Positions 2,511 through 43,676 of a DNA stretch of 43,676 nt are shown here, one piece after another. Under the pieces are notes generated by a model. The model saw nothing but the letters and a program-made list of their open reading frames with translations, had not been told where the DNA came from and searched no databases. The stretch comes from Candidatus Uhrbacteria bacterium (GTDB lineage: Bacteria; Patescibacteriota; Patescibacteriia; UBA9934; CAZDDW01). Both the position numbers and the translations under genes were made by a program. Location of the stretch: contig JBDRNK010000087.1 in NCBI GenBank assembly GCA_043811105.1, forward strand, positions 1 to 43,676, in the 5' to 3' direction. Numbering within the stretch: position 1 is the stretch's first letter; each line of letters opens with the position of its first letter.

Positions 2511-2547
<37 letters not shown>

Positions 2548-5540: not shown

Positions 5541-5573
<33 letters not shown>

Positions 5574-5583
5574 GTGGAGAAGC

Positions 5584-5651
<68 letters not shown>

Positions 5652-6088: not shown

Positions 6089-6132
6089 TCGGTCTCCTAT
6101 CCGCCACGGGCGTCGAAAGTTGCGGGAACCTA

Positions 6133-6173
<41 letters not shown>

Positions 6174-6397
6174 ACCGGTTGTTCTGCCAAGGGCATTGCC
6201 GGGTAGCTACGTTCGGTTTGGATAAGCGCTGAAAGCATATAAGCGCGAAGCCGATCCCAAGATTAACTTTCATTATGAGATCCCTCCGAGATGAGGAGGT
6301 TGATAGGCTCTAGGTGTAAGCGTGGTAACACGTTCAGCCGAGGAGTACTAATAGATCCAGACTCTACAATTACTTAATAAGAATGTTTCGTTCTAGA

Positions 6398-12269: not shown

Positions 12270-12631
12270 CTATTTAGATTGTTCTGGTTCTTTTAGAGAT
12301 CGTATCCATCCACCTAACATCCGGCCGATCTCATCTATTTGTTGTTGCAAGTTAAGATATCTTTTGTTGTTTATTTTCTTACAGTCTTTCATTAATCGAA
12401 TAAATACTCGGAACATGTTAAGTTGTGTACTTGTTTTTTCAAGCACAGGAAGTTTTTCTTGCTTGTATAGTTCACTGGCCTGTAACAAGCCTTCCAGAAT
12501 GTTCAGATTACAATTTTCGACCTTTTGCCAAAGTGTGTATCGATCTTGTTTTGGTATGGTCAGGCGAAAAGAATAAATGTTTTGGTATAATTCGTAGGTT
12601 TTTTAAAGATAGGAATTTTAAATTCATCCAT
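12270..12631 (-). pseudogene. avd: Avd-like four-helix-bundle protein (DGR accessory), frameshifted
   Basis: The C-terminal 72 aa (...QQQIDEIGRMLGGWIRSLK) continue upstream as KTYELYQNIYSFRLTIPKQDRYTLWQKVENCNLNILEGL. The ATG-containing N-terminus MDEFKIPIFKK is in another frame. The frame switch falls at a 6-nt homopolymer (12599-12604). Confidence 0.6.
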
Positions 12632-23028: not shown

Positions 23029-23057
23029 CTCTGATGGCGTCTGATATCAGTACGGGA

Positions 23058-23954
23058 CTAAAGTCCCTGAGAATTCAGTGACTTCAAGGCCTTTTTCAAC
23101 TCCTCACCCTCCCTTGGTGGCTTACCGTGCCAGAGATGATCGTTTTCCATAAAATCAACACCTTTGCCTGGAATGGTGTGGCAGATAATAATTGTCGGAC
23201 GTTCCTGAATAGATTTGGCTTCACCTACCGCGTCAACAAATTCACGAATGTTGTGCCCATCGACTTCAATCACGTGCCAGTTAAAGGCTTCGAACTTATC
23301 GCGCAATGGTTCTAACGGACAAACATCCTCAGTGTTGCCATCGATCTGAATGTTGTTGCGATCTAGAACCACTGTCAGATTGTTCAGTCCGAATTTTGGT
23401 GCAACCAAGAAAGCCTCCCAATCGATCCCGCACTCAAGCTCTCCATCGCTGATAAAACAATAAGTGTGCCAGCGAGCTTTGTCCATCTTGGCCACCAAGG
23501 CACAGCCAACCGCTTGAGCGATTCCATCACCAAGAGGGCCTGAGGTGTTTTCAATTCCAGGTAAACGAGTTCGTTCAGGATGTCCCTGCAGTCGAGATCC
23601 GAACTGGCGAAGAGTGTCGAGTTCTTTGATCGGAAAATATCCAGCATGAGCCATGCATACGTATTGAACCGGGCAGTAGTGTCCGGCAGACAAGAACAAG
23701 CGGTCACGCTTTTTCCAATCAGGGTTCTTTGGATCATGTTTAAGGACATGAAAATAAAAAGCAGTCCAGATGTCAGCTGAGCCCAAAGGACCAGCCGAAT
23801 GACCGCTTCCAGCCTTGGCCAGCATTTTCATCATATCAATCCGAATTTCATGTGCTTTAGCCTCAAGTTGTTTTAGCTTGTTGTCGTGCATACCCGGCAG
23901 TAAAACTTTAAACTTTTTATATGTGGCTTGTTTACGAACCAAGCTAAAAACCAA
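23058..23954 (-). CDS. transketolase, N-terminal (TPP-binding) subunit
   Basis: GSGHSAGPLGSADIW, GHPE and FISDGELECG motifs. The likelier start is ATG at 23891 (MHDNKLKQ...). Confidence 0.85.
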   Translation of the reverse strand: MVFSLVRKQATYKKFKVLLPGMHDNKLKQLEAKAHEIRIDMMKMLAKAGSGHSAGPLGSADIWTAFYFHVLKHDPKNPDWKKRDRLFLSAGHYCPVQYVCMAHAGYFPIKELDTLRQFGSRLQGHPERTRLPGIENTSGPLGDGIAQAVGCALVAKMDKARWHTYCFISDGELECGIDWEAFLVAPKFGLNNLTVVLDRNNIQIDGNTEDVCPLEPLRDKFEAFNWHVIEVDGHNIREFVDAVGEAKSIQERPTIIICHTIPGKGVDFMENDHLWHGKPPREGEELKKALKSLNSQGL

Positions 23955-24137
23955 CAGCGGTTGGTGTGCTTAGCAGCCTTTCCAAACTACACCCGACAAC
24001 TAAATATTTAAAGTTTTCCTGCCGGGCATAACATTCCTATTTTAGCACAAATCGTGAATTTTTCTAAGCCAGTTTATCTGGCGTCCGAATTCACTCCGGA
24101 CATAAAGTCCGTTTGAAGTATATTAAAGAACTAAAAA

Positions 24138-31359: not shown

Positions 31360-31388
31360 TTGACAAAACTATATTTTGGTGCTATACT
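31360..31388 (+). promoter_or_regulatory. strong sigma70-type promoter for the downstream ncRNA
   Basis: TTGACA (31360-31365), 17-nt spacer, TATACT (31383-31388). Confidence 0.6.
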
Positions 31389-31394
31389 AGTAAA

Positions 31395-31878
31395 AGATGA
31401 TTCAAAAATAATCTTGTGAGAGAGCCCTGGCCGGGGATAAGGCAAAGAGTAGAGAGTAGAAAGTAGAAGGTAGAAAGGAATAAGCTTATATAAGCTCCTT
31501 TCTACTCTCTACTATCTACTTTCTACCCAAAACGGATGTGTAGATCTCTTTCCGAGGTAAACAGGTCTGTTTATTTTTTTCACTCAGAAACCTGGGGGGA
31601 GAGTCCCCCTTCGCTCCTGAAGGAGCTACGGGGGATAGATAAACCGTTACCAGTAGGGCTTATGCCTGAGAGGTGCGGTGAGCTTAACAGGCTTAATCAG
31701 ACCAGGCTTAGGCTTGCTCTATAGTCATAGTTAAGCTCACGAGCTTATATCTGCTGCTTGCAGCGTTCACTAAGTTCACATCACTCCCAGATTTCTGAGT
31801 GAAAACTCAGCTTAAGGCCCTGTAATATTCTAGTAAACTAGATATAGGACAAAGGTGGTTCGAATCCACTCGGGGCCA
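31395..31878 (+). ncRNA. unclassified ~480-nt structured RNA with a tRNA-like 3' end (tmRNA-like, not confirmed)
   Basis: Own promoter and no credible ORF. Long-range pairs: cactcagaaa (31580) with tttctgagtg (31793); gtgagcttaac (31676) with gttaagctcac (31730). 3' end: GGAC-aaa-ggtgg-TTCGAAT-ccact-cggggcc-A. A candidate 5' acceptor strand ggccctg lies at 31816. No G3:U70. Confidence 0.45.
31447..31527 (+). repeat. REP-like long hairpin R4 (GTAGA-repeat arms) inserted in the ncRNA
   Basis: gagtagagagtagaaagtagaaggtagaaagga ... tcctttctactctctactatctactttctac. A second copy lies at 42555-42630. Confidence 0.75.
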
Positions 31879-31955
31879 GCAAAGAAAATACATCACCAGC
31901 GTTGTTGCTGGTGGTGAAGATCTATAAAAACATGTATTGCTGAAGGAGATGTTTG

Positions 31956-33290
31956 ATGACAGCGACACCGGGTTACGCAAGCGCTCTGGGAGCAGCGCCG
32001 CATTCGACGGCGATGTTCAACCTGTTGACCTTCAACCAGGTCGTGGCCACCCACGGCGGAACAGAGGATTGGATCGAGGCCTGCAAGGCGATTGGCTTCG
32101 ACGAGATGCCACCGCTGGCCGGGCGTGAGGTCCCCAAGGGCCTCTGTCGGGTCTGTGGTCCGAGGGTCGACGTCGAGCAGATCGCTGACGGCGAAGGTCT
32201 GTGGCAGGACGGTGAGTTGCCCGACCTGATCGACGCCGCAGACGAGTACCTGCTCGATCACGGCTACGACATCAACGGCAACCTGATCGACGACCTGGAC
32301 GACGACGAGGACGACGACGAGTTCGACCAGGACCTGGAAGTCCAGGAGAGGTTCGAACTGGCCGAGTTGAAGTCTGCGGAAGATCATCTGCGGACGATCG
32401 CCTATAACGACTTCGGTCACGGTGAGGTGACCTGCTGGAAGGCGTATTATCGCACCCAGTATCGGCCGAGCGTCATCGCCGCACAGTCCAAGGCGCAAGT
32501 GGCCAAGCAGTGGTCGTTTGACGTGCCCTATGGCTGGTACGGCATGTTCGATCGAGACGAGATCGAGCGACCCGAGACCGACGGTCTCGAAGATGTCGAA
32601 GCCTGGATGGCCTGGCACGAAGCAGGTCTGCCCTTCGACGTCCTGTTCGAGCAGGAGATGCTCGAGTTCAACGAGCCCTTCGTTGACGTGTCCGATCCGG
32701 ACTTCGACCATGACTGGGACTGGCACTACCGTGACCGGTCCATGGCCTGGGAGGATTTCGACGAGTACGATGATGACGACGATGATCTGGACGACTGGGA
32801 TCGCATGGACGACGACTGGGGTGATCCCTACGCCGACGGCCTCAACGATGAGTGGTCGATCGACGACAACTCCTGGGAGGACAATGATCCTTACGGCTTC
32901 TGGGACGAGGAAGACGGCTGGAACGAGTACGACATCCGTCGCTCCTGGGGTTTTGGCAAAGGCAGTGGTCGTGAACAGCTTTCACTGGAGTACTTCCGGC
33001 AGAAGCACCCTCGGGTTGAGGATCTCCAGGAAGAGTTCGAGCTGGAGGAGATCAGGGTCAGGGTTCGTGAGAGCCACGACTCGTATCGCCTCTGGCAGGA
33101 AGAGTACGGGAAAGATAACCAGGCCTGGAATAGCTGGAAGCGCTATCGGTGTGCACAACGCTGGCCAGTGGTTCACTCGGTTCCATGGGGTGAGGCTACT
33201 CGACATTTGGCCGCAATCCCAATCAGTCTGGAAGACGACTTCCAGGATCTGCTTCTCGAGGATCTGATGGATCTCGAGGACGCCGCCTAG
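31956..33290 (+). CDS. highly acidic Asp/Glu/Trp-rich protein (hypothetical)
   Basis: 444 aa. gaaggag SD 7 nt before ATG 31956. Runs such as DDLDDDEDDDEFD and DDDDDDLDDWDRMDDDWGDPY. Confidence 0.65.
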   Translation: MTATPGYASALGAAPHSTAMFNLLTFNQVVATHGGTEDWIEACKAIGFDEMPPLAGREVPKGLCRVCGPRVDVEQIADGEGLWQDGELPDLIDAADEYLLDHGYDINGNLIDDLDDDEDDDEFDQDLEVQERFELAELKSAEDHLRTIAYNDFGHGEVTCWKAYYRTQYRPSVIAAQSKAQVAKQWSFDVPYGWYGMFDRDEIERPETDGLEDVEAWMAWHEAGLPFDVLFEQEMLEFNEPFVDVSDPDFDHDWDWHYRDRSMAWEDFDEYDDDDDDLDDWDRMDDDWGDPYADGLNDEWSIDDNSWEDNDPYGFWDEEDGWNEYDIRRSWGFGKGSGREQLSLEYFRQKHPRVEDLQEEFELEEIRVRVRESHDSYRLWQEEYGKDNQAWNSWKRYRCAQRWPVVHSVPWGEATRHLAAIPISLEDDFQDLLLEDLMDLEDAA

Positions 33291-33310
33291 TTCATTCAAC
33301 TCAACAAAGT

Positions 33311-33438
33311 CCAGCAGTCCTTGCTGGCACGTGCCTCGAACACTGTTCGAGGCCTCCACCCTGTACCAGACGTCTCTAACGAGCCGTCGGTACAGGGCCC
33401 TACCAGAGTTTCTGAAGTAATTCAGAAACTCTGGTGGG
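33311..33438 (+). repeat. island junction J1: hairpins Ha, Hb, Hc and a short inverted-core element
   Basis: Ha 33311-33327, Hb 33333-33353, Hc 33359-33397 (ccctgTAcc/ggTAcaggg variant). ccctaccagagtttctgaa-gtaa-ttcagaaactctggtggg at 33398-33438. Confidence 0.75.
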
Positions 33439-33479
33439 AGTAGTTTCCAGATTTTTAAAATGTCCAACAAGGAGGATTC

Positions 33480-34364
33480 ATGGGCAACATTCGTTTCTTT
33501 ATCTGTTCCAACCCGGACACCCTCAAGGAGTGTCTTGAGGGAAATCCTTCAGCCACAGTCGAGGCTGAGTATGGCAACCGTGTGGTCGAAGGGTCGCTGT
33601 TGACTCTGGCCCATCATGGGCTACGGTCGAACAACCCGGCGCCTTGTCTGGCCGAGAACGGCTGTGGTCAGGGGGTCGACCTGGTCGGCTTGAGCCATTT
33701 CGACCTGGACACCCTGGGTGGCTGCATGGCCATCCTGGGCAACAAGTCCGAGGCTGATGGCTTCTGGAACCTGGCTGCGTTCGTGGACGTCAATGGCGCC
33801 CACAAGCTTGGTCAGTCCAAGGCCAGTGTCGAGGACGTCGTCCGGCTCTACGCCTTCTGGGCCTGGAGCAAGGATCACCGGCTGTTCGCCCCACGGGGTG
33901 GTGCGGTACTCGACGTGACCACGGAGATCAAGGCAGCTGCGGCTGCGATCATGGCTATCCTGAACGGTGACCATGATCTGATCGAGGCTGGGATGGAGTT
34001 CCAGGGTGAGGAGACTCACCTGAACAGCTCCTCTTTCGTCGAATTGGTCGACGGGGTGGTCGTCCGGATTGTTCGGAATCAGACGGACTTCGTCAACCAC
34101 CTCTACGTCACTCCTGACGGTCAGGTGGCCCAGGCAGTGGTTTCGCTCAACCTGGGACATGGCGGCTGCACGATCAGTCTGGCTGATCCGGTCGAGGGTG
34201 TGTCCTGTCGGGAGATCGTCCAGTCCGTCTGGACGGACACCGACGACGATGGCAATCTTTTGGCTGGTGGCCATGATGGTATCGCTGGTTCGCCACGCGG
34301 CCAACGGCTCGGTCTGGATGACCTGGTCGCCGTTCGCGACGTCATGGTCAAGGCCCTGACCTGA
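33480..34364 (+). CDS. divergent DHH/DHHA1-like phosphoesterase (tentative)
   Basis: SHFDLDTLGG (motif I-like DxD), NGDHDL (DHH-like), AGGHDGIAGSPRG (GGGH..AAG-like). aaggagg SD. Confidence 0.6.
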   Translation: MGNIRFFICSNPDTLKECLEGNPSATVEAEYGNRVVEGSLLTLAHHGLRSNNPAPCLAENGCGQGVDLVGLSHFDLDTLGGCMAILGNKSEADGFWNLAAFVDVNGAHKLGQSKASVEDVVRLYAFWAWSKDHRLFAPRGGAVLDVTTEIKAAAAAIMAILNGDHDLIEAGMEFQGEETHLNSSSFVELVDGVVVRIVRNQTDFVNHLYVTPDGQVAQAVVSLNLGHGGCTISLADPVEGVSCREIVQSVWTDTDDDGNLLAGGHDGIAGSPRGQRLGLDDLVAVRDVMVKALT

Positions 34365-34376
34365 TCCTTTCAAAGC

Positions 34377-34580
34377 CCAGCAGTCCTTGCTGGCACGTGC
34401 CTCGAACCCTGTTCGAGGCTCCACCAGAGTTATTCAAACAAGTATCATGTCTCAAGTAACCCACCTTCGCCAAGGCTTCGGTGGGCAGGCAAGTATCAAG
34501 TTAGGAAGATATCGCGATATTTTCCATCCTTGATCCTTGAACCTTGTTACTTGAAACTTTCCTTGGATACCCCTGGTGGG
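34377..34580 (+). repeat. island junction J2: Ha, Hb, empty Hc site, inverted-core element invaded by host repeats
   Basis: Ha 34377-34393, Hb 34399-34419. ctccacc|agag has no Hc. ccaccagag (34421) pairs with ccctggtggg (34571). The interior 34440-34557 consists of host-type caagt-arm and ccaccttcgccaaggcttcggtgggcagg repeats. Confidence 0.7.
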
Positions 34581-34602
34581 ATACAATCTAAACGGAGGAA
34601 AG

Positions 34603-34749
34603 ATGAGCAAGATCCTGTCTGTCTGTGTCGAAATCGTGATCTACTGCATGGCATTTGCCATGTATCAGATCTACGAGCGCCGCTACTCGTGCGGCAACCT
34701 GAACAACACCTTGGGCAAGGTCGCCAGCTCCACAGGCTACCACCCGTAG
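34603..34749 (+). CDS. 48-aa small hydrophobic protein
   Basis: ggagga SD 5 nt upstream. MSKILSVCVEIVIYCMAFAMYQIYERRYSCGNLNNTLGKVASSTGYHP. Below the ORF-track cutoff. Confidence 0.5.
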   Translation: MSKILSVCVEIVIYCMAFAMYQIYERRYSCGNLNNTLGKVASSTGYHP

Positions 34750-34767
34750 GAATTGAAAGGAGCCGAC

Positions 34768-35037
34768 GTGAGTATTCGTCAACAGTTGGTTTGCTTCGGG
34801 ATCGTGGCAAAAGTCATGTGCACGATCGTTGGTCTTTGCATCTTGGGTACAGTGCTGCTCGTAGCCAACGTGGCTGCCGTTGCTATCTGGATCGGATGTC
34901 TGCTGGATTGGGACTTTCCGATCTTGTACGCCTTTGTCCCAGCTTTGGTAATGTTTCTGGACGTCTGTGTCAGTCTACTGATTTCCAGGCTCTGGCCAGG
35001 GTTCAGTGACTGGCTTTGCCTCGGGTTCAGGAAGTAG
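34768..35037 (+). CDS. small membrane protein (two or three TM)
   Basis: aaggag SD 5 nt before GTG 34768. Hydrophobic throughout. Confidence 0.55.
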   Translation: MSIRQQLVCFGIVAKVMCTIVGLCILGTVLLVANVAAVAIWIGCLLDWDFPILYAFVPALVMFLDVCVSLLISRLWPGFSDWLCLGFRK

Positions 35038-35214
35038 AAGAAGTATATTGCGTGGGCTGGTTCTTACCAGCTCTAACTGCGAACGCCGCGTATGTTCGCA
35101 GACCCTCTCTAGTTTAGAAATAGCGATCCTAATGAAATTCGAATGGCATTCGAATGATCCGAATATTTGTAAATTAAAGAGGGGGAAACAATTTTCAAAC
35201 AACAAGGAGTGGTC

Positions 35215-35298
35215 ATGACCATCGATTTGATCAGAATCTACAACCGCGTCTATTACCGGATTTTCCGGATTCGACGCTGGTTTCGATCCGCGAAGTAA
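35215..35298 (+). CDS. 27-aa highly basic peptide (speculative)
   Basis: aaggag SD 4 nt before the ATG. MTIDLIRIYNRVYYRIFRIRRWFRSAK. Confidence 0.25.
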   Translation: MTIDLIRIYNRVYYRIFRIRRWFRSAK

Positions 35299-35336
35299 AC
35301 CAAGCCGTTAACGCAGAAGTAGAGGAGGAAGTTGAA

Positions 35337-35699
35337 ATGAGCACGAAAATGCTGATTGCTGCCGTGGTGGTGGTGTTGAACTTCTGGCTGGTGTTCGGCT
35401 GTGTCATGCCAGTGCCGGAGATGGTCTCTGACATCTGTGCCATGATGCTTCGAGCCGAAGCCTGGACGATCGGGCTGTGCCTGGTTTTCAGCGTCTTGTT
35501 CTTCTACGATCAGATGGTTCTGGTCGTGGAGCAACACAAGCTTCGCTGTGGTCAGGTCTGTCGGATCTGGTCCAGAGTGACGGTGCCAGACCCCAAGGAG
35601 CTGGGTGTTCGCGAAATGGTTTGCGAGGCCTGGATCATCAGCATGGAAAAGGTTGTACACGCACAACAGCGCGTGCACCGTTTCCTACAAAACGTGTAG
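35337..35699 (+). CDS. hypothetical membrane protein
   Basis: gaggagga SD. 120 aa with N-terminal TM helices. Confidence 0.55.
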   Translation: MSTKMLIAAVVVVLNFWLVFGCVMPVPEMVSDICAMMLRAEAWTIGLCLVFSVLFFYDQMVLVVEQHKLRCGQVCRIWSRVTVPDPKELGVREMVCEAWIISMEKVVHAQQRVHRFLQNV

Positions 35700-35743
35700 C
35701 TTACACGTACGACACCGGAGTCGCACTCGCGATTCCAAATTTA

Positions 35744-35890
35744 CCCTGAACCAGACATCTCTAACGAGCCGTCGGTTCAGGGCCCCACCTGAGATGTTAA
35801 GAGATTTTTCTAACGGGGTTTATCCCCGGTCTGACTGTCAGACGCCAGATGAACTGGCTAAGAAAAATTTCTTAAATCCTCTGGTAGGGG
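35744..35890 (+). repeat. island junction J3: Hc plus element II (copy 1)
   Basis: Hc 35744-35782. Element II 35783-35890: closing stem ttaagagatttttct/agaaaaatttcttaa around three small hairpins (gggg..cccc, tctga..tcaga, gccag..ctggc). Confidence 0.75.
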
Positions 35891-35898
35891 ATCAAAAA

Positions 35899-35925
35899 AC
35901 CGCCATGTAGGCGGTGGTTCGAATC
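35899..35925. terminator. hairpin between convergent genes, overlapping a T-arm-like 13-mer
   Basis: aaaaaaccgcc-atgt-aggcggt. ggtggttcgaatc (35913-35925) is identical to 31854-31866. Confidence 0.45.
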
Positions 35926-35936
35926 TTTACAAATAT

Positions 35937-36287
35937 TTATCGTAACTCTAGCTGGACATGTTGAGCTATCTGTTGTAACTGTGATTCGAGTCGTTCATAT
36001 TTAGATTGCAAAGCAATAAGTTCAGTCTCGAGTTTATTGTGTAAACTAATGAAACCGTCGACTTGGGTAATGATTTCAGATTTTGCTTCATTTACTACTT
36101 CCTTAATTTCAGTACCCAGCTCACCTTTTAAGTTAGAGATTTCAAAAGAGAGATCATCCTTCGAGGTCATGTGAGATTCTAACTCATGCAGATCATCCTT
36201 TGAAGCCGCATTATCTTTAATAAATTCAACAGTATCAAGTACTTGTTGTAGAGCGTTATCTTGATCCATACAAATGTAATTTAACAT
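35937..36287 (-). CDS. coiled-coil protein, AT-rich (paralog of 39116-39613)
   Basis: Start chosen at MLNYICMDQ by homology with the paralog. Shared C-terminus LETEL.ALQSKYERLESQLQQIAQH.QLELR. The line 36001-36060 hand-counts to 35% GC. Confidence 0.6.
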   Translation of the reverse strand: MLNYICMDQDNALQQVLDTVEFIKDNAASKDDLHELESHMTSKDDLSFEISNLKGELGTEIKEVVNEAKSEIITQVDGFISLHNKLETELIALQSKYERLESQLQQIAQHVQLELR

Positions 36288-36310
36288 ATTGTCGAGTAGA
36301 TGACAATGTT

Positions 36311-36409
36311 CTACCAGAGATGAATATTTCTTACCCAACTTGTTGGGGTTTTAAATCAAGACGGGAATAAATTCCCTGAGAAGTATTAAGAAATATCGTT
36401 TCTGGTGGG
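36311..36409 (+). repeat. island element I, copy 1 (structured leader candidate)
   Basis: ctaccagag...tctggtggg bracket. Inner hairpins cccaa-cttg-ttggg and gggaat-aa-attccc. 33 nt upstream of ATG 36443. Confidence 0.7.
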
Positions 36410-36442
36410 AGAAAAATTACATTCAATAAGAAAGGAAACGAG

Positions 36443-36700
36443 ATGACTGAGAAACAGCAGGAAAAGATGCTGACCGAGCTGAACTGGCTCAAGCGCTGGT
36501 TGGTTCGCCAGCCGCGCTGGTTGCAGATGGGCTTCTTGCTCATCTCAGGCCTTTTGCTCGGAGCTGACCTGATTCTGGTCGACCCGATTCCGCTGATCGA
36601 TGAAGCCTTGCTCATCTGGTCCACTTGGACCGGGTTCAAGGTGGCGGTCAACGATGGTCCACGGTATCGGCGTTTGGAAGCGCCGCAGGAGGAGTCATGA
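36443..36700 (+). CDS. small membrane protein, DUF1232/YkvA-like (tentative); paralog of 39855-40115
   Basis: 85 aa. ADLILVDPIPLIDEALLIWS resembles the DUF1232 D.IPD.IP..G..DD motif. Confidence 0.6.
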   Translation: MTEKQQEKMLTELNWLKRWLVRQPRWLQMGFLLISGLLLGADLILVDPIPLIDEALLIWSTWTGFKVAVNDGPRYRRLEAPQEES

Positions 36701-36939
36701 AGTATTGGCTCTTCGAACAGATTCCGCGGGTCTGGGTAACGGTCGTTCTGATCGCTGTCTGGTCAATTCTGGCCACGGCCACGCTAGCTGCCTGGCCCTT
36801 ACCCACCAGTTATGATGTCTGGGTCGGGCGTGGTCTTGGCTGTATACTCCTGACCTCCATTCCGGCCTTGTTGACCGAGCCGATTATTTTCGCACTCTGG
36901 TGGCCAGGCAAGCCCTTCGAGCTTCGGCCACGAAGCTGA
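36697..36939 (+). CDS. small membrane protein
   Basis: ATGA overlap with the upstream stop. aggaggag SD. 80 aa. The C-terminal KPFELRPRS is encoded by the shared repeat. Confidence 0.55.
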   Translation: MKYWLFEQIPRVWVTVVLIAVWSILATATLAAWPLPTSYDVWVGRGLGCILLTSIPALLTEPIIFALWWPGKPFELRPRS

Positions 36940-37119
36940 ACCTTCCCCACTCGCCCGGAACCATTCACGGTTCCGGGCCCTACCCTGAACCAGACGTCTC
37001 TAGCGAGTCGTCGGTTCAGGGCCCTACCAGAGATGAATATTTCTTACCCAACTTGTTGGGGTCAAGACGGGAACAAGTTCCCTGAGAAATATTATTTCTG
37101 GTGGGGGACGAAGTTTTTT
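36911..37119 (+). repeat. island junction J5: He, Hf, Hc, element I (copy 2)
   Basis: He gcttcg-gcca-cgaagc 36921-36936. Hf 36954-36977. Hc 36983-37021. Element I 37024-37105. 36983-37119 is identical to 37903-38039. Confidence 0.8.
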
Positions 37120-37185
37120 ACAACACGGCTTTACAGAGCCAAGGTCCGTCGAACGGGCCGAGCAATAAAGAAAGATAGGAAAGAC

Positions 37186-37491
37186 ATGCCATATTTGCAA
37201 TTGGTACATACCACGGGTAGCGACTTCATCATGGGATGGCACGGTTTTGGTGACACATCAATGCCTGACGGTGTGAATTTGCACTGTCTGTGCGATACGG
37301 GCACCACAATCGTATTTCCAAGTCTGGTCAGTGTGGCCGGTCTTGCCCTGACCGTGAGCAACATCAAAGCTTTGCTCAAGGCTTGGTTGAACGAGCAGGA
37401 AAGCCTGCCGGTTCATGTCTGCCCGAAGTGTGGTATCGATGGTAGTTCTGACAAGGATAAGGTCTTGGCTTGGTTACAAGCCCTTCGGTAA
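37186..37491 (+). CDS. hypothetical protein
   Basis: 101 aa from ATG 37186. Contains CPKC. The upstream part of the track ORF is element I sequence. Confidence 0.45.
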   Translation: MPYLQLVHTTGSDFIMGWHGFGDTSMPDGVNLHCLCDTGTTIVFPSLVSVAGLALTVSNIKALLKAWLNEQESLPVHVCPKCGIDGSSDKDKVLAWLQALR

Positions 37492-37593
37492 TTTAACAGT
37501 CCACCAGGGAAGATGGGCTTTCGCCCAATCCTGGCGTCCTTAGTCGGACGTAGAAGATGGACCCTGTCCACTAGGGCAGGAATTCGGAAAGAT

Positions 37594-37893
37594 ATGAAGA
37601 GATTTCTGAAGACGGTATCGTCCTACACGTTCACGGCCGCAGTCTACACGGTTCTGGCAGTACTGGTCCTGGCTATCGTGATTCCGATCGTGACCTTTGT
37701 TGGTGGACATGTCTGCCTGGTCGTTTGCGCCCTGGTCTGGGAGTTTTTTCCAGCCTGGGATCTGGGAGTGATCGGTGTGATCGGCGCTGCCACCTTCATC
37801 TTCGATGCAGTATTTCTACCATTCCTGATTCCGATCTTTCTGATCGTAGCAACCTGGCTGCTCACCCCGAGCAAGAAGCGGCAATGTTGCTAA
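37594..37893 (+). CDS. small polytopic membrane protein
   Basis: 99 aa from ATG 37594 (alternative start 37513). Hydrophobic throughout and ends in CC. Confidence 0.5.
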   Translation: MKRFLKTVSSYTFTAAVYTVLAVLVLAIVIPIVTFVGGHVCLVVCALVWEFFPAWDLGVIGVIGAATFIFDAVFLPFLIPIFLIVATWLLTPSKKRQCC

Positions 37894-37902
37894 ACTCTTT
37901 CG

Positions 37903-38039
37903 CCCTGAACCAGACGTCTCTAGCGAGTCGTCGGTTCAGGGCCCTACCAGAGATGAATATTTCTTACCCAACTTGTTGGGGTCAAGACGGGAACAAGTTC
38001 CCTGAGAAATATTATTTCTGGTGGGGGACGAAGTTTTTT
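37903..38039 (+). repeat. island junction J6: Hc plus element I (copy 3)
   Basis: 137-bp perfect copy of 36983-37119. Confidence 0.85.
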
Positions 38040-38064
38040 CAAACAACAAATGAAGGAGAGAACG

Positions 38065-38469
38065 ATGTTGAATACAGAAAGAACCTTGCGCGATTTCGTC
38101 TTTCTGGTGTACCAGTTGGCAGTGAACGATAACGATCAGTTGCCGCCAACACCGTGGACCGACATCAAGATCACGCCGGCCAAGTACGCTGTTCTGCTGC
38201 GTCAGGGCTGGCAACGGGCTCAGAAGGGTCGAATGCAGATGTGTCTGCGCTTTGATCTTCCGGATGGGTCTGTGGCCTATCTCGGTAACGGTGACCCTCA
38301 GGGTCATAACAACGATATCTGGCACGGTCGGATCGAGGGTCCGATCGCCGAAAGCCTCGGCTGCCGCTGGATCGAGTTTGGTGTCATGGCCGATGCCGAA
38401 GTCGACACCAAGGGTCTGTTGGCTGCAACCAAACGTAGCCGGCCCTTCGAGCTTCGGCCACGAAGCTGA
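38065..38469 (+). CDS. hypothetical protein
   Basis: gaaggag SD 6 nt before ATG 38065. 134 aa. The C-terminal RPFELRPRS is encoded by the shared repeat. Confidence 0.55.
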   Translation: MLNTERTLRDFVFLVYQLAVNDNDQLPPTPWTDIKITPAKYAVLLRQGWQRAQKGRMQMCLRFDLPDGSVAYLGNGDPQGHNNDIWHGRIEGPIAESLGCRWIEFGVMADAEVDTKGLLAATKRSRPFELRPRS

Positions 38470-38615
38470 ACCTTCCCCACTCGCCCGGAACCATTCACGG
38501 TTCCGGGCCCTACCAGAGTTGTTCAATAATTTTTCTAACGGATCTCTGATCCGGTTCTGAATTCGAACGCCATCAGAGATGGCTAAGAAGAACTTCTGAA
38601 CATATCTGGTAGGGG
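38441..38615 (+). repeat. island junction J7: He, Hf, empty Hc site, element II variant
   Basis: 38442-38514 is identical to 36912-36984. gggccctacc|agag has no Hc. Element 38510-38615 is bracketed by ctaccagag / atctggtagggg. Confidence 0.8.
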
Positions 38616-38640
38616 ACAATTACAAACAGAGGAGGTACAA

Positions 38641-38883
38641 ATGTACCGCGTGATCATTGCGATTTTTTGGGCCATGGTGGCCTTTGGAATGTTCTGGGGT
38701 TTTGTTTTCGGCCACCTGCACGTGGTCGGATTCATCGAGTGTCTGATTCGTCAGGACTTCAGTTCGGATCCAGGTTACTTGATGAGCATCGTGGCGATCT
38801 TGACCGTACTGCTCGACATCTTTGCATTCCTCGCTTTCATACTTGGAATGCACTGCCGCATCTTTCTGTGGTGCCGCAGTTGA
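38641..38883 (+). CDS. small membrane protein
   Basis: gaggagg SD. 80 aa with two hydrophobic helices. Confidence 0.55.
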   Translation: MYRVIIAIFWAMVAFGMFWGFVFGHLHVVGFIECLIRQDFSSDPGYLMSIVAILTVLLDIFAFLAFILGMHCRIFLWCRS

Positions 38884-38890
38884 AATATTT

Positions 38891-39071
38891 CACTCGCCCG
38901 GAACCATTCACGGTTCCGGGCCCCACCCTGAACCAGACGTCTCTAACGAGTCGTCGGTTCAGGGCCCCACCTGAGATGTTAAGAGATTTTTCTAACGGGG
39001 TTTATCCCCGGTTTGTAAGTCAGACGCCAGATAAACTGGCTAAGAAAAACAGCTTAACACATCAGGTTGGG
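38891..39071 (+). repeat. island junction J8: Hf, Hc, element II (copy 2)
   Basis: Hf 38897-38920, Hc 38926-38964, element II 38965-39071 (closely similar to 35783-35890 over its first ~50 nt). Confidence 0.8.
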
Positions 39072-39115
39072 TCAATCAAAAAACCGCTTTGTCAGCAGTT
39101 TTGTTCTTAAAAGGA

Positions 39116-39613
39116 TTATCGCAGTTCCAATTGAATATGTTGAGCTATCTGTTGTAATTGCGATTCAAGACGTTCGTACTTGGATTGAAGAGCCACAAGT
39201 TCAGTTTCAAGTTTGTTGTGTAGATTGATAAAGCCATCGATTTGAGTGACTATTTCAGATTTTGCACCAGAAATTATTTGTTCAACATCGGCTTTGACTA
39301 CTGCGTTATCTTTGACAAATTCAACTGTTTCTTGCACCCCAGCCATATCCTCTCTGAGAGAACTAACGTCTGTTTTTACTCCAGACATATCTTCTTTGAG
39401 AGAACCAACGTCTGTTTTAAGAGAACCAACATCTGTTTTTACCCCAGCCATATCCTCTTTAAGGGAGCTGACATCTGTTTTAAGAGAACCAACATCTGTT
39501 CGAACTGAACCAACCGCCACTTCCAATCCTTTGATTGCTTCCCGGTTTGAGGTGGTGGTATCTAGAATTTTTTCAAGTAGTGATTGTTGATCCATACAAA
39601 AGTAATTTAACAT
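39116..39613 (-). CDS. coiled-coil protein with an internal 21-nt tandem repeat expansion (paralog of 35937-36287)
   Basis: 165 aa. Heptad-like repeats DVGSLKT/DVSSLKE/DMAGVKT. Same N- and C-termini as the paralog. Confidence 0.65.
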   Translation of the reverse strand: MLNYFCMDQQSLLEKILDTTTSNREAIKGLEVAVGSVRTDVGSLKTDVSSLKEDMAGVKTDVGSLKTDVGSLKEDMSGVKTDVSSLREDMAGVQETVEFVKDNAVVKADVEQIISGAKSEIVTQIDGFINLHNKLETELVALQSKYERLESQLQQIAQHIQLELR

Positions 39614-39636
39614 ATTGTCGAGTAGATGACAATGTT

Positions 39637-39818
39637 CTACCAGAGATTAGTATTTCTTACCCAATTTACCTGGCCGCCGAAGCTTTAGCGAAGGCGGGTT
39701 GGGGTTGTGATGGGAACGACAAACTTTAGTTTGTCAAATGACAGACTAACGTCTGTCAGTCCCTACAAGACGGGAATAAATTCCCTGAGAAGTATTAAGA
39801 AATATAATTTCTGGTGGG
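39637..39818 (+). repeat. island element I, copy 4, interrupted by host REP-like repeats
   Basis: Same ends as copy 1. About 100 nt are inserted (39668-39767), containing cctggccgccgaagctttagcgaaggcgggttgggg and tgacagactaacgtctgtcagtccctac. Confidence 0.75.
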
Positions 39819-39854
39819 AGAAAAGGTTTTACAATCAATACGAAAGGGAACAAA

Positions 39855-40115
39855 ATGACTGAGAAACAGCAAGAGCAAATGCTGACTGAGCTGAACTGGC
39901 TCAAGCGCTGGTTGATTCGTCAGCCTCGCTGGTTGCAGGTGAGCTTCTTGTTCATCTCAGCCGCGCTGTTCGGTGTCGACATGATCGCGCTCGACCCGCT
40001 GCCCTTCATCGACGAAGCCATTCTGGCCTGGTCCACCTGGACCGGGTTCAAGGTGGCGGTCAACGACGGTCCGCGGTATCGGCGCTTGGATGCACCCGAG
40101 TCCAAATCTACCTAA
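39855..40115 (+). CDS. small membrane protein, DUF1232/YkvA-like (tentative)
   Basis: 86 aa. Closely similar to the 36443-36700 product (MTEKQQE.MLTELNWLKRWL.RQPRWLQ...). Confidence 0.6.
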   Translation: MTEKQQEQMLTELNWLKRWLIRQPRWLQVSFLFISAALFGVDMIALDPLPFIDEAILAWSTWTGFKVAVNDGPRYRRLDAPESKST

Positions 40116-40141
40116 ACCTCTCAAACATCTGAGGAGAAAAA

Positions 40142-40441
40142 ATGCAGACGGTTCTGGTAATATTGATGTTGATGGCTATGATTCTGGGCGGAGTGGCTAC
40201 TGCCCTTCGTATCTGGACTAAGAGCCAATGGACTGGTCGTCTGGCACTAGCCAGCCTGGTCAGTTTGATTCTGGGAACGGCCTGGGCCATTGGTTCTGGC
40301 CACTGGGTAATGGTGATCATGGAGCCGGTGATGTGGTTCCTGACCCTGGCCAGTGTCTGGCTGTTCAGCTACAGCCTTTGGCATCTGAACAATCCGGTCA
40401 AGCTGGCCTATGCGCGGTTGCGGTTGCGACTGCACAACTGA
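40142..40441 (+). CDS. small polytopic membrane protein
   Basis: gaggag SD. 99 aa with three hydrophobic helices. Confidence 0.55.
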   Translation: MQTVLVILMLMAMILGGVATALRIWTKSQWTGRLALASLVSLILGTAWAIGSGHWVMVIMEPVMWFLTLASVWLFSYSLWHLNNPVKLAYARLRLRLHN

Positions 40442-40449
40442 ATATCTTG

Positions 40450-40608
40450 CCCCGGAACCTATCGTGGTTCCGGGGCCCTACCCTGAACCAGACGTCTCTA
40501 ACGAGCCGTCGGTTCCGGGCCCCACTTAAGCACAGCAGTTTGATGAATATCGAAACTCTCTCTCAATATTCATTAAACCAGCAATGCTGTGCTTAGGTGG
40601 GGTTTTTT
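40450..40608 (+). repeat. island junction J10 / right end: Hf variant, hybrid Hc, terminal hairpin plus T-run
   Basis: ccccggaacc-tatcgt-ggttccgggg 40450-40475. Hc with an Hf-type 3' arm at 40481-40519. cccacttaagcacagca...tgctgtgcttaggtgggg followed by TTTTTT (40603-40608). Confidence 0.7.
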
Positions 40609-40643: not shown

Positions 40644-42560
40644 ATGTGTGGAATCGTTGGCTATATAGGTAAAAAACAGGCCCTGCCGATCTTAATTGAT
40701 GGGTTAAAGCGTTTGGAATACCGTGGTTATGATTCGGCTGGGGTGGCGTTGTTGGGTGAGGGGGGTTGTCAGATTATTAAGAGTCCGGGGAAGATAGTAG
40801 GATTAGAAGAGAAAGTCTCAAGTTTCAAGTCTCAAGTCTCAAGTGCTGGAATCGCTCATACTCGCTGGGCGACTCATGGGCCTCCGACTGAGGCCAATGC
40901 TCATCCGCATACTGATTGCTCTGGCAAAATTGCCTTAGTTCATAACGGAATTGTTGAGAACTATCAGGAATTGAAACAAGAATTACAGGAGAAGGGACAT
41001 CAGTTTCGTTCAGAAACGGATACTGAAGTGTTGGTGCATTTGATTGAAGATTGTTTAAATAATGTAGCGGAAGGCTTTAGCCTTCCATGTCAGCAAAATG
41101 GAACCCTCCCACCTTCGCCAAGGCTTCGGCGGGCAGGAAAGGGTTCCTCTACATTAGAAATGGCAACCAGAAAGGCATTAGAACAAGTGCGCGGCACTTA
41201 CGGTATTGCTGTAGTTTCATCTGATCATCCAGATCAAATCGTGATTGCTCGCATGGGCAGCCCGATTGTTATTGGTGTGGGCACTGATGATTTTTTTGTT
41301 GCTTCAGATGCTTCAGCTTTGTTAAGTCATACCCGCAATGTAATTTATCTTGACGATGGCGAGATGTGTGTTTTACGACCGGACGGTTATTCGATTAAGA
41401 CTTTGGGTAATCGATCAGTGGCTAAAGAACCAGAAGTTATTGAGTGGTCAGCTGAAGATGTTAAAAAAGGTGGACATCCGCATTTCATGAAAAAGGAAAT
41501 GATGGAACAGCCAAAAGTTTTGGTTGATTCTATTCGCGGTCGTTTAAAACCAAAAGATGGAAAAGCCGTGCTTGGTGGTTTAAGCGATGTTGCCGATCGT
41601 CTGCGTCAAATTGATCGACTAATTATTGTTGCCTGCGGTAGTGCCTACTATTCCGGCCTGGTCGGCGAGTATATGTTGGAAGAATATGCTGGTATTCCAG
41701 TGGAAGTAGATCTGGCTTCAGAGTTTCGTTATCGCAAACCGATTATTACAGATCGCACAGCCGTGCTTGCAGTTAGTCAATCCGGAGAAACCGCAGACAC
41801 ACTAGCAGCGATCCGTGAGGCAAAAGAAAAAGGTGCTTTAACCTTGGGAATCGTTAATACGGTTGGATCGACCATAGCTCGGGAAACCGATGCCGGTATT
41901 TACAATCATGCCGGCCCGGAAATTGGAGTGGCTTCAACTAAGGCTTTTTTATCGCAAGCAACAGTCTTTGCTTTATTAACCATGTTTCTTGGTCGACAGC
42001 GATCAATGTCAATGGTCATGGGTAAGCGTATAGCTGATGAGATTCAGATGCTTCCAGACAAGTTGCAATCAATCATTAACCAGTTTGATCAGATCTCGCT
42101 TCTGGCTCAGAAATACAAAGACATGCAAAATTGTTTGTACTTGGGACGAAAATACTGTAGTCCAATTGCTTACGAAGGAGCTTTGAAACTTAAAGAGATT
42201 TCTTATATTCACGCTGAAGGTTATGCAGCTGGAGAAATGAAACACGGTCCGATCGCTTTGATTGATTCAAACTTTGTTTCCGTTGTGCTATGTCCAAAAG
42301 ACTCGGTTTATGAAAAAACTATATCTAACATCGAAGAACTTAAGGCTCGTGGTGGTTCGATCATCGCCGTGACAACTGAAGGCAACGATTCGATTAAACA
42401 AGTCGCAGATGATATAATCTATATACCAAAAACTTTAGAAATGTTAACTCCAATTTTGGCTGTGGTTCCGTTGCAAATTTTTGCTTACGCAATTGCTACA
42501 GCTCGTGGTTATGATCCGGACATGCCCAGGAATCTGGCTAAAGCCGTGACCGTGGAGTAG
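40644..42560 (+). CDS. glmS: glutamine--fructose-6-phosphate aminotransferase
   Basis: MCGIVGYIG N-terminal nucleophile. GIAHTRWATHG. Two SIS domains. C-terminal ...AKAVTVE. Confidence 0.95.
   Translation: MCGIVGYIGKKQALPILIDGLKRLEYRGYDSAGVALLGEGGCQIIKSPGKIVGLEEKVSSFKSQVSSAGIAHTRWATHGPPTEANAHPHTDCSGKIALVHNGIVENYQELKQELQEKGHQFRSETDTEVLVHLIEDCLNNVAEGFSLPCQQNGTLPPSPRLRRAGKGSSTLEMATRKALEQVRGTYGIAVVSSDHPDQIVIARMGSPIVIGVGTDDFFVASDASALLSHTRNVIYLDDGEMCVLRPDGYSIKTLGNRSVAKEPEVIEWSAEDVKKGGHPHFMKKEMMEQPKVLVDSIRGRLKPKDGKAVLGGLSDVADRLRQIDRLIIVACGSAYYSGLVGEYMLEEYAGIPVEVDLASEFRYRKPIITDRTAVLAVSQSGETADTLAAIREAKEKGALTLGIVNTVGSTIARETDAGIYNHAGPEIGVASTKAFLSQATVFALLTMFLGRQRSMSMVMGKRIADEIQMLPDKLQSIINQFDQISLLAQKYKDMQNCLYLGRKYCSPIAYEGALKLKEISYIHAEGYAAGEMKHGPIALIDSNFVSVVLCPKDSVYEKTISNIEELKARGGSIIAVTTEGNDSIKQVADDIIYIPKTLEMLTPILAVVPLQIFAYAIATARGYDPDMPRNLAKAVTVE
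41064..41153 (+). repeat. 90-nt nested REP-like insertion (R3 inside R2), in frame within glmS
   Basis: gtagcggaaggctttagccttccat gtcagc aaaatggaaccct[cccaccttcgccaaggcttcggcgggcagg]aaagggttcc tctaca. Encodes VAEGFSLPCQQNGTLPPSPRLRRAGKGSST. Confidence 0.75.
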
Positions 42561-42630
42561 AGAGTAGAAGGTAGAAGGTAGAAAGGAATAAATTTAACTC
42601 CTTTCTACTCTCTACTTTCTACCTTCTACT
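42555..42630 (+). repeat. REP-like long hairpin R4 filling the glmS to HD-gene spacer
   Basis: gagtagagagtagaaggtagaaggtagaaagga...tcctttctactctctactttctaccttctac. Its first TAG is the glmS stop, and the ATG of the next gene follows at 42631. Confidence 0.8.
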
Positions 42631-43676
42631 ATGTGGTTATCAGGAAAACGAAAACTAACCCTTCACGCACGTGACCTGGATGAAGTCTTGGGGAATTTTG
42701 AGCAAGACCGTTTTTTAATTGAATGGACCGATCAGGTGATCAAAGAGACAACTAAAAATTTCCCGATTCTAACTGATATATTTGCCAGTCCGCAATCAGC
42801 CAACAAACACGCCGAAGGTCCGTTGTTGGAAGATCATGTTCGTAAGATATTAATGACTCTTTACGCTTTGGTTGAGGGTCGGTTTAGTTTGTTGGAGGTT
42901 GAGGAGTTTCGACGAATGAAAGGGTATGAGGGTGAATTTGAAGAATTAGAGGAAACAATAAAAGAACGGGCTGGTATGTTTAAGGTCTATGCTCTGATTC
43001 ATGATATTGGAAAAGCGGCAACAATTTCATTTTCCGCTCCTGAAGGAAGTAAAGGTGCGGAATATGGTTTTGCCCAGTCAGTGGCGATTGGTTGGGACGA
43101 CTTTGCCGGTGATCAACGTTTTTCAGCTAGAAAAAAATATGATGACCTTTATGCTACTTTTGCCGTAAATCGATCCGGACAAGATCAAAAAGTAATTCAG
43201 GCGGAGTTTTTCCGTGAGTTCCAGATATCGATTTCCAATCATGGTCATGCTAGGTTGATTTTTGCCCCTGAGTTAAATAAGGTTGTGCGTGCATTAGCTA
43301 AAGAAAACAGACTACCTGAAAATGATATTGATTTGCTCGAAGAATTAATTGCTGTTCATATGGATACAGCTCATTATTTTTGGGGCAAAGCTGATCCTCA
43401 AGACTATGCACATTTTGTTGAATATTCAGCCGGTATCGGTCAGGACGCTGATGATTTTTTGGACTTGCTTCAGGCTGCTGCATTTTTAGATAAGGTTTGT
43501 GGTTCATGGAAATTGTCAGCCGGTGGCTATTGGCACAGTTGTGAAATATTAACTAATTTTTTGCAGGCTGAACATGATTACGCACCTTGGCGACGAGAGG
43601 CTGCTGAAGAGCGTCGGGCTAAGCGAGAGTTGGAAAAGCGACGAGAGATATATCGTCAGGTTGGTTTGGATGGTGA
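42631..43676 (+). CDS. HD-domain protein (3'-partial, runs off the window)
   Basis: Open frame from ATG 42631 to the window end, so not in the track (no stop). HAEGPLLEDHVRKIL ... YALIHDIGKA (H...HD). Confidence 0.65.
   Translation, partial: MWLSGKRKLTLHARDLDEVLGNFEQDRFLIEWTDQVIKETTKNFPILTDIFASPQSANKHAEGPLLEDHVRKILMTLYALVEGRFSLLEVEEFRRMKGYEGEFEELEETIKERAGMFKVYALIHDIGKAATISFSAPEGSKGAEYGFAQSVAIGWDDFAGDQRFSARKKYDDLYATFAVNRSGQDQKVIQAEFFREFQISISNHGHARLIFAPELNKVVRALAKENRLPENDIDLLEELIAVHMDTAHYFWGKADPQDYAHFVEYSAGIGQDADDFLDLLQAAAFLDKVCGSWKLSAGGYWHSCEILTNFLQAEHDYAPWRREAAEERRAKRELEKRREIYRQVGLDG

Follow-up and report, generated by a model that had tools for sequence, protein, structure and literature searches.

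Element I, described in an earlier note as a conserved multi-hairpin leader in four copies, belongs to a much larger repeat family, and as judged from its sequence is best read as a new family of nested repeats resembling MITE, REP and ERIC elements. We give about an even chance to the full interpretation, according to which Element I consists of two nested palindromic repeats, i.e., an outer stem (the "bracket") that putatively acts in the mRNA, and an inner, dispersed cloverleaf core that travels as a passenger. Comparison of the copies and of related genomes establishes which elements belong to the family, how both layers are predicted to fold, that the bracket has a sense-strand wobble signature, and that the core is polymorphic in insertion and inversion. 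On the same comparisons, the bracket is an oriented and maintained structure of the sense strand which delimits the predicted expression units of a GC-rich accessory island, and the core is a dispersed module that related genomes have gained, lost and inverted at the DNA level.

The window (the whole stretch of DNA analysed, 43.7 kb) has a GC content of about 40% and includes a 23S rRNA gene that contains a group I intron, genes for 5S rRNA and tRNA-Ala, ileS, transketolase genes and glmS, the last with its best match among GTDB representative genomes in a Candidatus Uhrbacteria (66% identical). The island lies at roughly 31.9-40.6 kb with a GC content of 50-62%, and is flanked by ileS, a non-coding RNA region and glmS, with a tRNA-like element at its border. 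Its ORFs, most of them small, are all on the sense (+) strand, and its first gene product is very acidic. A tmRNA identity for the region left of the island was considered and rejected with Rfam and ARAGORN. Homologues of island proteins, together with one pattern scan of metagenomes, led to related islands; these loci (L001, L004-L006, L007, L089/L090 from two NCBI Patescibacteria MAGs, L093 from TARA, and L094) are syntenic, with a non-coding RNA with a tRNA-like end followed by the island and then glmS, and carry the same bracket ahead of their expression units.

All four copies of Element I reported earlier were recovered (Table 1). Copies 1 and 2 are 93% identical, copies 1 and 4 are 94% identical outside two insertions totalling 83 nt, and copies 2 and 3 are completely identical over 143 nt with their flanks counted (repeat family D6). 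Every copy folds far below its shuffled controls (z-scores of -5.88, -5.40, -5.40 and -7.80 for copies 1-4, with 0 of 200 shuffles as good), and both the closing stem and the two hairpins named in the earlier note are present, as is the duplicated 3' arm of copies 1 and 4 (GAGAAGTATTAAGAAATAT, found in both). The earlier description had missed two parts of the structure: the stem runs on outward as CCYACCAGAG/YUCUGGUGGG, and copies 1 and 4 contain a third (middle) hairpin, which turns the fold into a 4-way junction. Of this middle hairpin, copies 2 and 3 retain only GUCAAGAC, and copy 4 has gained a GC hairpin in the loop of hairpin 1 (hp1) as well as a twin hairpin in hp2. Because indels of 7 and 10 nt separate the copies, Element I is non-coding, and together with the z-scores this upholds the view of a structured multi-hairpin element in leaders and intercistronic spacers. 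A small peptide within the element (ATG at 37033) was also considered and set aside, as it has no RBS, lies inside the stem, and has its frame broken by the inter-copy indels.

The differences between copies 1 and 4 keep the pairing. At one pair of the closing stem, copy 1 has G-C, copies 2 and 3 have G.U and copy 4 has U-A, and the hp3 stem occurs in three compensatory variants (GGGAA/UUCCC, GGGGC/GCCCC and GGGAC/GUCCC). The double change that the earlier note had singled out (C..G vs. T..A) is present in the sequence, all 10 copies of the sub-motif described below reading either C-AA-G or U-AA-A, but ViennaRNA predicts no pair at this position because it would close a 2-nt loop; with two states only, the change may go back to one inherited event. 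The start codon lies 33, 80, 39 and 36 nt from the 3' end of copies 1-4, respectively, which places the RBS about 20-70 nt 3' of the fold and outside the structure. A promoter predicted at copies 1 and 4 (ATGACA-17-AATATT) has its -10 box within the 5' arm of the element, so that transcription from it would start inside the element and omit the 5' arm. No equivalent of this sense promoter was found in the relatives with plain brackets, nor a consistent sense-strand promoter at the brackets behind the coiled-coil gene.

Table 1. Repeat elements and associated features of the window (positions from its first nucleotide; hpA and hpB are hairpins upstream of brackets).
Feature	Position	Strand	Description
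Tandem cloverleaf modules	23015-23077 and 22953-23014	-	between the transketolase-N and transketolase-C genes
Cloverleaf module	24059-24120	-	spacer upstream of the transketolase operon; outside the island; without bracket; 70.6 bits
Plain bracket hairpin	33401-33438	+	18 bp with tetraloop; ORF294 41 nt downstream; simplest form in the family; 68 bits
Bracket with complex apex	34422-34580	+	apex contains other host repeats; 48-aa ORF 22 nt downstream
Element II copy a	35786-35888	+	same bracket; cloverleaf core 35805-35867; convergent coiled-coil gene next
Divergent promoter spacer	36270-36308		palindrome TTGTC-N8-GACAA; between antisense coiled-coil gene and Element I copy 1
Element I copy 1	36312-36409	+	bracket stem and cloverleaf core; R1 model 28 bits, R2 model 67.7 bits; divergent promoter region on 5' side, ORF85 (ATG 36443) on 3' side
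Element I copy 1, parts	core 36325-36385; hp1 36334-36347; hp2 36348-36362; hp3 36363-36376	+	
hpA copies	36954-36977; 38484-38507; 38897-38920		
hpB hairpin	36982-37020	+	CCCTGAACC...GGTTCAGGG; with hpA upstream of most brackets
Further hpB copies	33358-33396; 35743-35781; 37903-37940; 38925-38963; 40480-40515		
Element I copy 2	37025-37105	+	core 37038-37091, middle hairpin shrunk; intercistronic; hpA and hpB upstream; ORF101 80 nt downstream
Element I copy 3	37945-38025	+	core 37958-38011; same as copy 2; ORF134 39 nt downstream
Element II copy b	38511-38613	+	core 38530-38592; hp1 and hp3 stems covary with copies a and c; 80-aa ORF 27 nt downstream
Element II copy c	38968-39070	+	core 38987-39049; one bracket pair A-U -> U-A relative to other copies
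Duplicate of divergent promoter spacer	39596-39634		97% identical
Element I copy 4	39638-39818	+	core 39651-39794; ORF86, a paralogue of ORF85, downstream
Bracket-like terminal stem	40519-40604	+	compensatory changes; U-run behind; ahead of the glmS promoter

The core shared by Elements I and II measures 55-63 nt, and is predicted to form a 4-way junction from a closing stem (UUUCUnA/UnAGAAA) and three hairpins that abut each other without linkers. Its terminal inverted repeats read TTTTTCT/AGAAAAA or TATTTCT/AGAAATA and are paired in 89.8% of the alignment cells. When seven sequences were aligned on this 4-way junction structure, 93.5% of the cells were paired (79.7% in shuffles, and at most 59% with slid partners), nine pairs were altered on both sides, and the covariation score reached 0.408, as compared to 0.170 in shuffles (0 of 500 shuffles reach 0.408). 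Covariation backs this fold. Loop and junction nucleotides are not conserved.

A covariance model of the core matches the 43.7-kb window 10 times (seven matches in the island and three in housekeeping spacers) and also L094, L006 and L093, the match in L006 being a copy of Element I before an ORF445 homologue; no match was obtained in other CPR loci. For all 10 copies in the window the sense strand scores 10-29 bits above the antisense strand, and the wobbles of the core (6 G.U vs. 3 A.C) give no clear strand signature. A sub-motif, AAGAC-GGGNN-NNNN-NNCCC-UGAGAA, occurs in 10 copies in 5 genomes, with eight copies in sense and two in antisense orientation, and has 0 matches in 2.8 Mb of unrelated loci. 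The modules in housekeeping spacers, found by blast of the cores, lie on the minus strand, which is the direction of the host genes there. The tandem pair encodes the last codons and the stop of transketolase-N and provides the RBS of transketolase-C, with the RBS placed within the 3' arm of the module at 22953-23014, an exception to the rule of an RBS outside the fold. Module orientation tracks gene direction on both DNA strands of the window. This favours a constraint at the transcript level, but only as long as the stretch from 24 to 33 kb contains no replication origin, a point that GC skew, which follows gene direction in the window, cannot decide.

The outer layer has the sequence CCYACCAGAG...YUCUGGURGG, continued inward by UUUCUnA/UnAGAAA, and closes apices ranging from a 4-nt loop to a branched structure of more than 100 nt. 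The stem comprises 18-20 bp in plain brackets, and the closing stem 13+10 bp in Element I and 10+15 bp in Element II. The window contains nine such elements on the sense strand plus one terminal variant, all of them within the GC-rich island, and each bracket stands either ahead of the first RBS of a unit, at a distance of 20-80 nt, or where a unit ends opposite a convergent gene. Its position relative to the RBS is constant across at least five genomes. In plain brackets we counted 21 G.U and 0 A.C mismatches, with wobbles at eight positions, a bias which points to pairing of the sense strand, and the sense strand is also the better-folding one in 18 of 22 elements. A bracket covariance model, for which nine plain hairpins from 5 genomes were used, gives these hairpins 54-71 bits in sense and 23-45 bits in antisense orientation; Element I copies 1-3 obtain 27-28 bits, being read as a hairpin with an apical insertion, and no match was found in the window outside the island. 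The outer stem is conserved in sequence as well as in structure, and distant relatives show double changes in it (CCACCUAAGC/GCUUGGGUGG; CCACCCAAGAUUUUGA/UCAAAAUCUUAGGUGG in L089; CCCACU.../...AGUGGG in L093). The terminal variant is likely the terminator of the island. A terminator identity was rejected for the internal brackets, which are without a U-run, whereas the terminal variant and the host terminators have one.

The spacer between transketolase-N and transketolase-C is 105 nt long in the window, where it holds two modules, and 1 nt long in L089 (TAG-t-ATG). The leader of ORF85 contains Element I twice in the window (i.e., before ORF85 and its paralogue), a plain bracket in L094, a bracket enclosing an unrelated insert in L001, and a bracket enclosing the inverted Element I core in L093, with the 3' spacer and the RBS homologous among genomes despite these different apices. 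In L093, a marine relative (TARA) with an ORF85 protein 58% identical to that of the window, the core before the ORF85 orthologue aligns to the reverse complement with a score of 58, as compared to 26 when both have the same orientation. Similarly, the twin-hairpin insert of copy 4 is present inverted in L105, and other host repeats are nested in the bracket apices of L001, L093 and L094. No direct repeats indicative of a target-site duplication were seen at the flanks of host or island core copies, the orthologous empty sites being too diverged for base-by-base alignment. The earlier note had held that its claim would fail if the copies turned out to be DNA-level transposon ends; this holds in part, in that the core acts like a palindromic repeat which inserts and inverts in the DNA, but no transposase was found among the larger ORFs of the window scanned against Pfam.

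Within the window, a segmental duplication (35743-36700 vs. 38925-40115) allows conservation to be compared side by side: between the two segments, identity amounts to 94% in Element I and 97% in the promoter spacer, vs. 83.5% in the ORF85 coding sequence (28% of third codon positions changed) and 81% in the coiled-coil gene. Together with the pair-preserving differences between copies 1 and 4, this suggests constraint or gene conversion. Elsewhere, identical 143-nt modules flank unrelated ORFs, the module of the coiled-coil gene has a bracket on each side, and the island content is mosaic between genomes. Homology breakpoints also occur without a bracket, as in the ORF85-ORF132 fusion of L094 and the gene-order change of L001.

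Our best guess is that the bracket is probably a processing, 5'-protective or insulating stem, and that the core is probably a tolerated passenger. In the transcript, the bracket would work as a stable duplex over a length of 18-28 bp or more, and could be a substrate for RNase III-type processing: the predicted stems have the length of double-stranded RNA (about 20 bp or more) that marks an RNase III site, and an RNase III gene is located in L007, a related contig with the bracket. Or else the bracket may be a 5' protective or insulating hairpin, shielding the A-rich RBS region of its unit from the GC-rich mRNA upstream. The core of Element I would have no gene-specific regulatory role, its hairpins persisting as palindromes whose bulky, stable apices are possibly harmless or useful, and the repeats would supply homology for shuffling in the island. 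RNase III has little sequence preference, and the sequence-conserved outer stem therefore fits a sequence-specific protein or recombinase partner better than RNase III; the sense bias of the core (10 of 10 copies, and 8:2 for the sub-motif) is likewise unexpected of a pure passenger. Template switching from one arm of a palindrome to the other can give the look of compensatory evolution even when the RNA is under no selection. Against the preferred explanation it can further be said that the G.T wobbles stabilise a sense-strand hairpin of single-stranded DNA equally.

Several other readings have to be weighed against that of a transcript-acting bracket with a passenger core. Both layers might be selfish or neutral palindromes, functionless in RNA and DNA alike and kept by recent spread and self-correction. 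Such repeats would be expected to insert, invert and nest, all of which is seen, to have near-identical copies, and to share their apices with other repeat families of the genome, as they do here. We nevertheless consider this reading unlikely: a neutral palindrome does not account for the ratio of 21 G.U to 0 A.C in the brackets, for a position relative to the RBS that is constant in at least five genomes, for compensatory changes that preserve the bracket in divergent relatives, or for conservation above that of neighbouring third codon positions.

Alternatively, the brackets could be DNA recombination sites, folding as single-stranded hairpins in the manner of attC or REP and used by a recombinase or HUH enzyme encoded elsewhere to build and shuffle the cassettes of the island. 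Their conserved ends and highly variable apex are reminiscent of attC sites, they lie in a single orientation next to unrelated ORFs of foreign GC content, and the sequence conservation of the outer stem, the 143-nt modules beside unrelated ORFs, the coiled-coil module bracketed on both sides and the mosaic content of the island would all be at home in such a system. However, neither the 43.7 kb of this genome, of which the larger ORFs were scanned against Pfam, nor the related loci revealed an integrase, recombinase or transposase; a tyrosine recombinase domain was absent from the scanned ORFs of the window and the syntenic loci, and a Y1/HUH transposase domain from the scanned ORFs of the window. 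The brackets also have no RYYYAAC/GTTRRRY cores, breakpoints are found without them, the better-folding strand is the sense strand although it is the bottom strand that recombines in integrons, and the modules of the host region switch DNA strand along with gene direction. Taken together, we judge recombination sites improbable.

Quite improbable, too, is a variant in which the bracket is the recognition site of an as yet undescribed machinery specific for both sequence and structure, either an endoribonuclease cutting the transcripts of the island into unit mRNAs or a recombinase acting on folded single strands, and defines portable gene cassettes in CPR bacteria. Under such a reading the brackets would be punctuation of an integron-like or CRISPR-repeat-like kind, and the core a structured mobile element targeting hairpin apices.

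The idea put forward in the earlier note, that of an RNA dedicated to cis-regulation, be it a riboregulator or a leader controlling translation (for instance by occluding the RBS), in which the multi-hairpin fold is what matters, has itself become doubtful, and we grant it only a small chance. To its credit, the fold is kept by covariation, Element I is more conserved than the adjoining coding sequence in the duplication, the sub-motif is in sense orientation at 8:2, and AAGAC-hairpin-UGAGAA, in which three stems covary, is conserved among 5 genomes. Its difficulties are that the RBS lies outside the fold, that the loop sequences are unconserved, that the leaders of ORF85 orthologues have a plain, inverted or unrelated apex, that the same core stands before unrelated genes and inside the coding end of a housekeeping gene, that the core tolerates insertions of 30-50 nt, and that there is no Rfam match. 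A leader like that of type I toxin loci fares no better, given that the downstream ORFs are unrelated, that ORF134 is not a small membrane peptide, and that the RBS is 20-70 nt 3' of the fold. For motif hunting this is a caution, since covariation combined with repetition before unrelated genes can stem from nested palindromic repeats rather than from a riboregulator. Finally, a catalytic or tRNA-like punctuation (a self-cleaving ribozyme, or a substrate of RNase P/Z) that cuts a polycistronic RNA would suit the four-way junction with its long closing stem, the intercistronic position and the tRNA-like element at the island border, but is highly improbable with no match to a ribozyme or tRNA family even at E <= 10, no tRNA reported by ARAGORN at the element, unconserved loop and junction nucleotides, and a core that can be missing or inverted.

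Hammerhead, twister, hairpin-ribozyme and tRNA-like identities were also rejected by eye and with Rfam and ARAGORN. Rfam returned no match in the island at gathering thresholds, in agreement with the earlier statement that the motif is not a recognised one, and at E <= 10 gave only chance miRNA-like hairpins. Searches of the island ORFs against Pfam and PHROGs yielded nothing significant (only sub-threshold or coiled-coil-type matches). There was no match by blastn against phages and plasmids, by a scan of GTDB representative genomes, or by exact-protein contig look-ups for two proteins of the window; DNA pattern scans of viral contigs found nothing, except that one further scan had 7 matches, all failing the covariance model. 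Overall, no matching repeat family was found in the literature searched, in Rfam, or in the phage and plasmid collections.

Mobile elements are considered scarce in CPR bacteria (Patescibacteria), whose gene regulation has received almost no study. The GC-rich island described here keeps a syntenic position between a tRNA-like non-coding RNA and glmS, yet its very small, uncharacterised genes are rapidly reshuffled; a conserved stem of the sense strand splits it into units, and the apices of these stems gather nested, flipping palindromic modules. If the bracket is a signal for RNA processing or insulation, it would explain the portable expression of cassettes of foreign composition; if it is a recombination site, it would represent a new cassette system. 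By its kind the family ranks among the nested palindromic repeats of intergenic regions, from which it is set apart by being organised in two layers, by a core that forms a 4-way junction, by an outer layer confined to a cassette-like island, and by its CPR host.

The closest parallels are the Correia elements (CREE) of Neisseria and the ERIC/IRU elements of enterobacteria, which likewise are short, non-coding intergenic or intercistronic repeats with terminal inverted repeats. Both are co-transcribed, form long RNA hairpins and exist in size variants produced by internal insertion, as would the present family. Correia hairpins are RNase III substrates, and ERIC copies alter mRNA stability. 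In contrast to these elements, the present family is built of two layers, one nested in the other, and its core branches as a 4-way junction; a target-site duplication (TA or other) was not seen, its outer layer is limited to one island and one orientation, its host belongs to the CPR, and there is no sequence similarity. REP/BIME elements and the palindromic elements of Rickettsia (RPE) are similar in being dispersed, nestable palindromes of conserved structure at gene ends or within coding sequence, and the C-terminus of transketolase-N, encoded by a cloverleaf module, is RPE-like. Unlike REP, neither bracket nor core has a GTAG-type head at its 5' side, no RAYT gene turned up in the available sequence, and the core is a three-hairpin cloverleaf instead of a single hairpin.

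Integron attC sites, also imperfect palindromes with a conserved base and a variable or branched terminal structure, separate unrelated small ORFs of atypical composition in uniform orientation. The brackets differ from them in their ends (CCYACCAGAG...YTCTGGTRGG, not the R''/R' pair RYYYAAC...GTTRRRY), in having no IntI by the array, in lying upstream of the RBS and not at a place set by the 3' end of a cassette, in the better folding of the sense strand, and in recombination breakpoints that are not confined to them. Lastly, the early RNase III sites of phage T7 are, like the brackets, stable stems of roughly 20-30 bp between small, fast-evolving, co-directional genes, and the product of T7 gene 0.3 is very acidic, like that of the first gene of the island. 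Compared with T7, the island is without phage genes (PHROGs negative), its stems are conserved in sequence and have mobile apices, and cleavage is here only proposed.

Overall, the island (31900-40600) stands out from the ~40% GC genome by its GC content of 50-62%, carries mostly small ORFs of unknown nature, and keeps its synteny across at least five related metagenomic genomes, with a mosaic content. Its left border is a conserved non-coding stretch in all relatives whose sequence covers that border. This stretch has a strong promoter of its own (TTGACA-17-TATACT, 31360-31388) and terminates in an acceptor stem and T-arm resembling those of a tRNA (31816-31881). The score against the Rfam tRNA model is 25.3 bits, which is under the cutoff, and no tRNA or tmRNA was called in the stretch by either ARAGORN or Rfam.

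Among the island genes, the first encodes a 445-aa product in which Asp and Glu are very abundant, and ORF294, which follows a plain copy of the bracket (the island stem with a variable apex), includes a GGH/DHHA1-like motif. Each of the two antisense coiled-coil genes lies between two brackets and is equipped with a promoter and terminator of its own; the second contains expanded 21-nt tandem repeats (39347-39514). Their homologues occupy an unchanged position in relatives, and in two further loci (L105 and L106) the coiled-coil gene adjoins a gene for a 292-aa protein with a PF03690 (MYG1 exonuclease) domain. In the more distant contig L007 (~50% GC), a highly structured non-coding stretch lies 3' of the Ro60/TROVE-vWA gene and is followed by a plain bracket hairpin, ~60 nt downstream of which a small ORF starts.

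Features of the window and of related loci
Feature	Sequence	Positions	Remarks
23S rRNA gene	window	1950-6366	4.4 kb
Avd-like small ORF	window	12270-12488	four-helix-bundle-like; strand opposite to reverse transcriptase
Reverse transcriptase, two ORFs	window	12642-13217; 13264-13551	RVT_1 match; YTDD motif
Conserved non-coding stretch	window	31400-31890	~450 nt
	L004	780-1330
	L089	11520-10930	minus strand
Coiled-coil genes	window	35937-36269; 39116-39595	paralogous, AT-rich; minus strand, antisense
GC-rich hairpin repeat CCCACCTTCGCCAAGGCTTCGGTGGGCAGG	window	41108-41141; 34460-34493	variant at 39670-39700
Long AT-rich hairpin repeat (GAGTAGAGAGTAGAAAG...)	window	31447-31526; 42555-42643
	L001	5221-5300
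	L093	12690-12620
RNase III gene	L007	8414-9256
Ro60/TROVE-vWA gene	L007	11299-12978
Plain bracket hairpin	L007	13834-13866

The GC-rich hairpin repeat is a separate small repeat family, inserting into coding and non-coding sequence alike: the glmS coding sequence contains it in frame, its second site is inside a bracket apex, and its variant occupies the loop of the first core hairpin in copy 4 of Element I. In the window, the long AT-rich hairpin repeat is free-standing within the host genome; in relatives, it sits nested within bracket apices. Further, a 73-nt block identical at 36912-36984 and 38442-38514 is a recombination footprint within coding sequence: through it, two ORFs with no relation to each other both have PFELRPRS, directly before the stop codon, as their C-terminal tail, together with hpA, a hairpin that along with hairpin hpB precedes most brackets; the L001 orthologue of the first of these ORFs stops earlier.

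Outside the island, in the housekeeping copy of the cloverleaf module at the transketolase junction, the ribosome-binding site and start codon of transketolase-C fall in the 3' closing arm UAGGAAAUAUG (22953-22961). In this case alone, the module could either occlude or supply a ribosome-binding site.

Elsewhere in the window, the 23S rRNA gene harbors a group I intron (5697-6016) and further large insertions, such as an AT-rich block at ~4400-4800. Finally, the split reverse transcriptase and the Avd-like ORF together resemble what is left of a diversity-generating retroelement.
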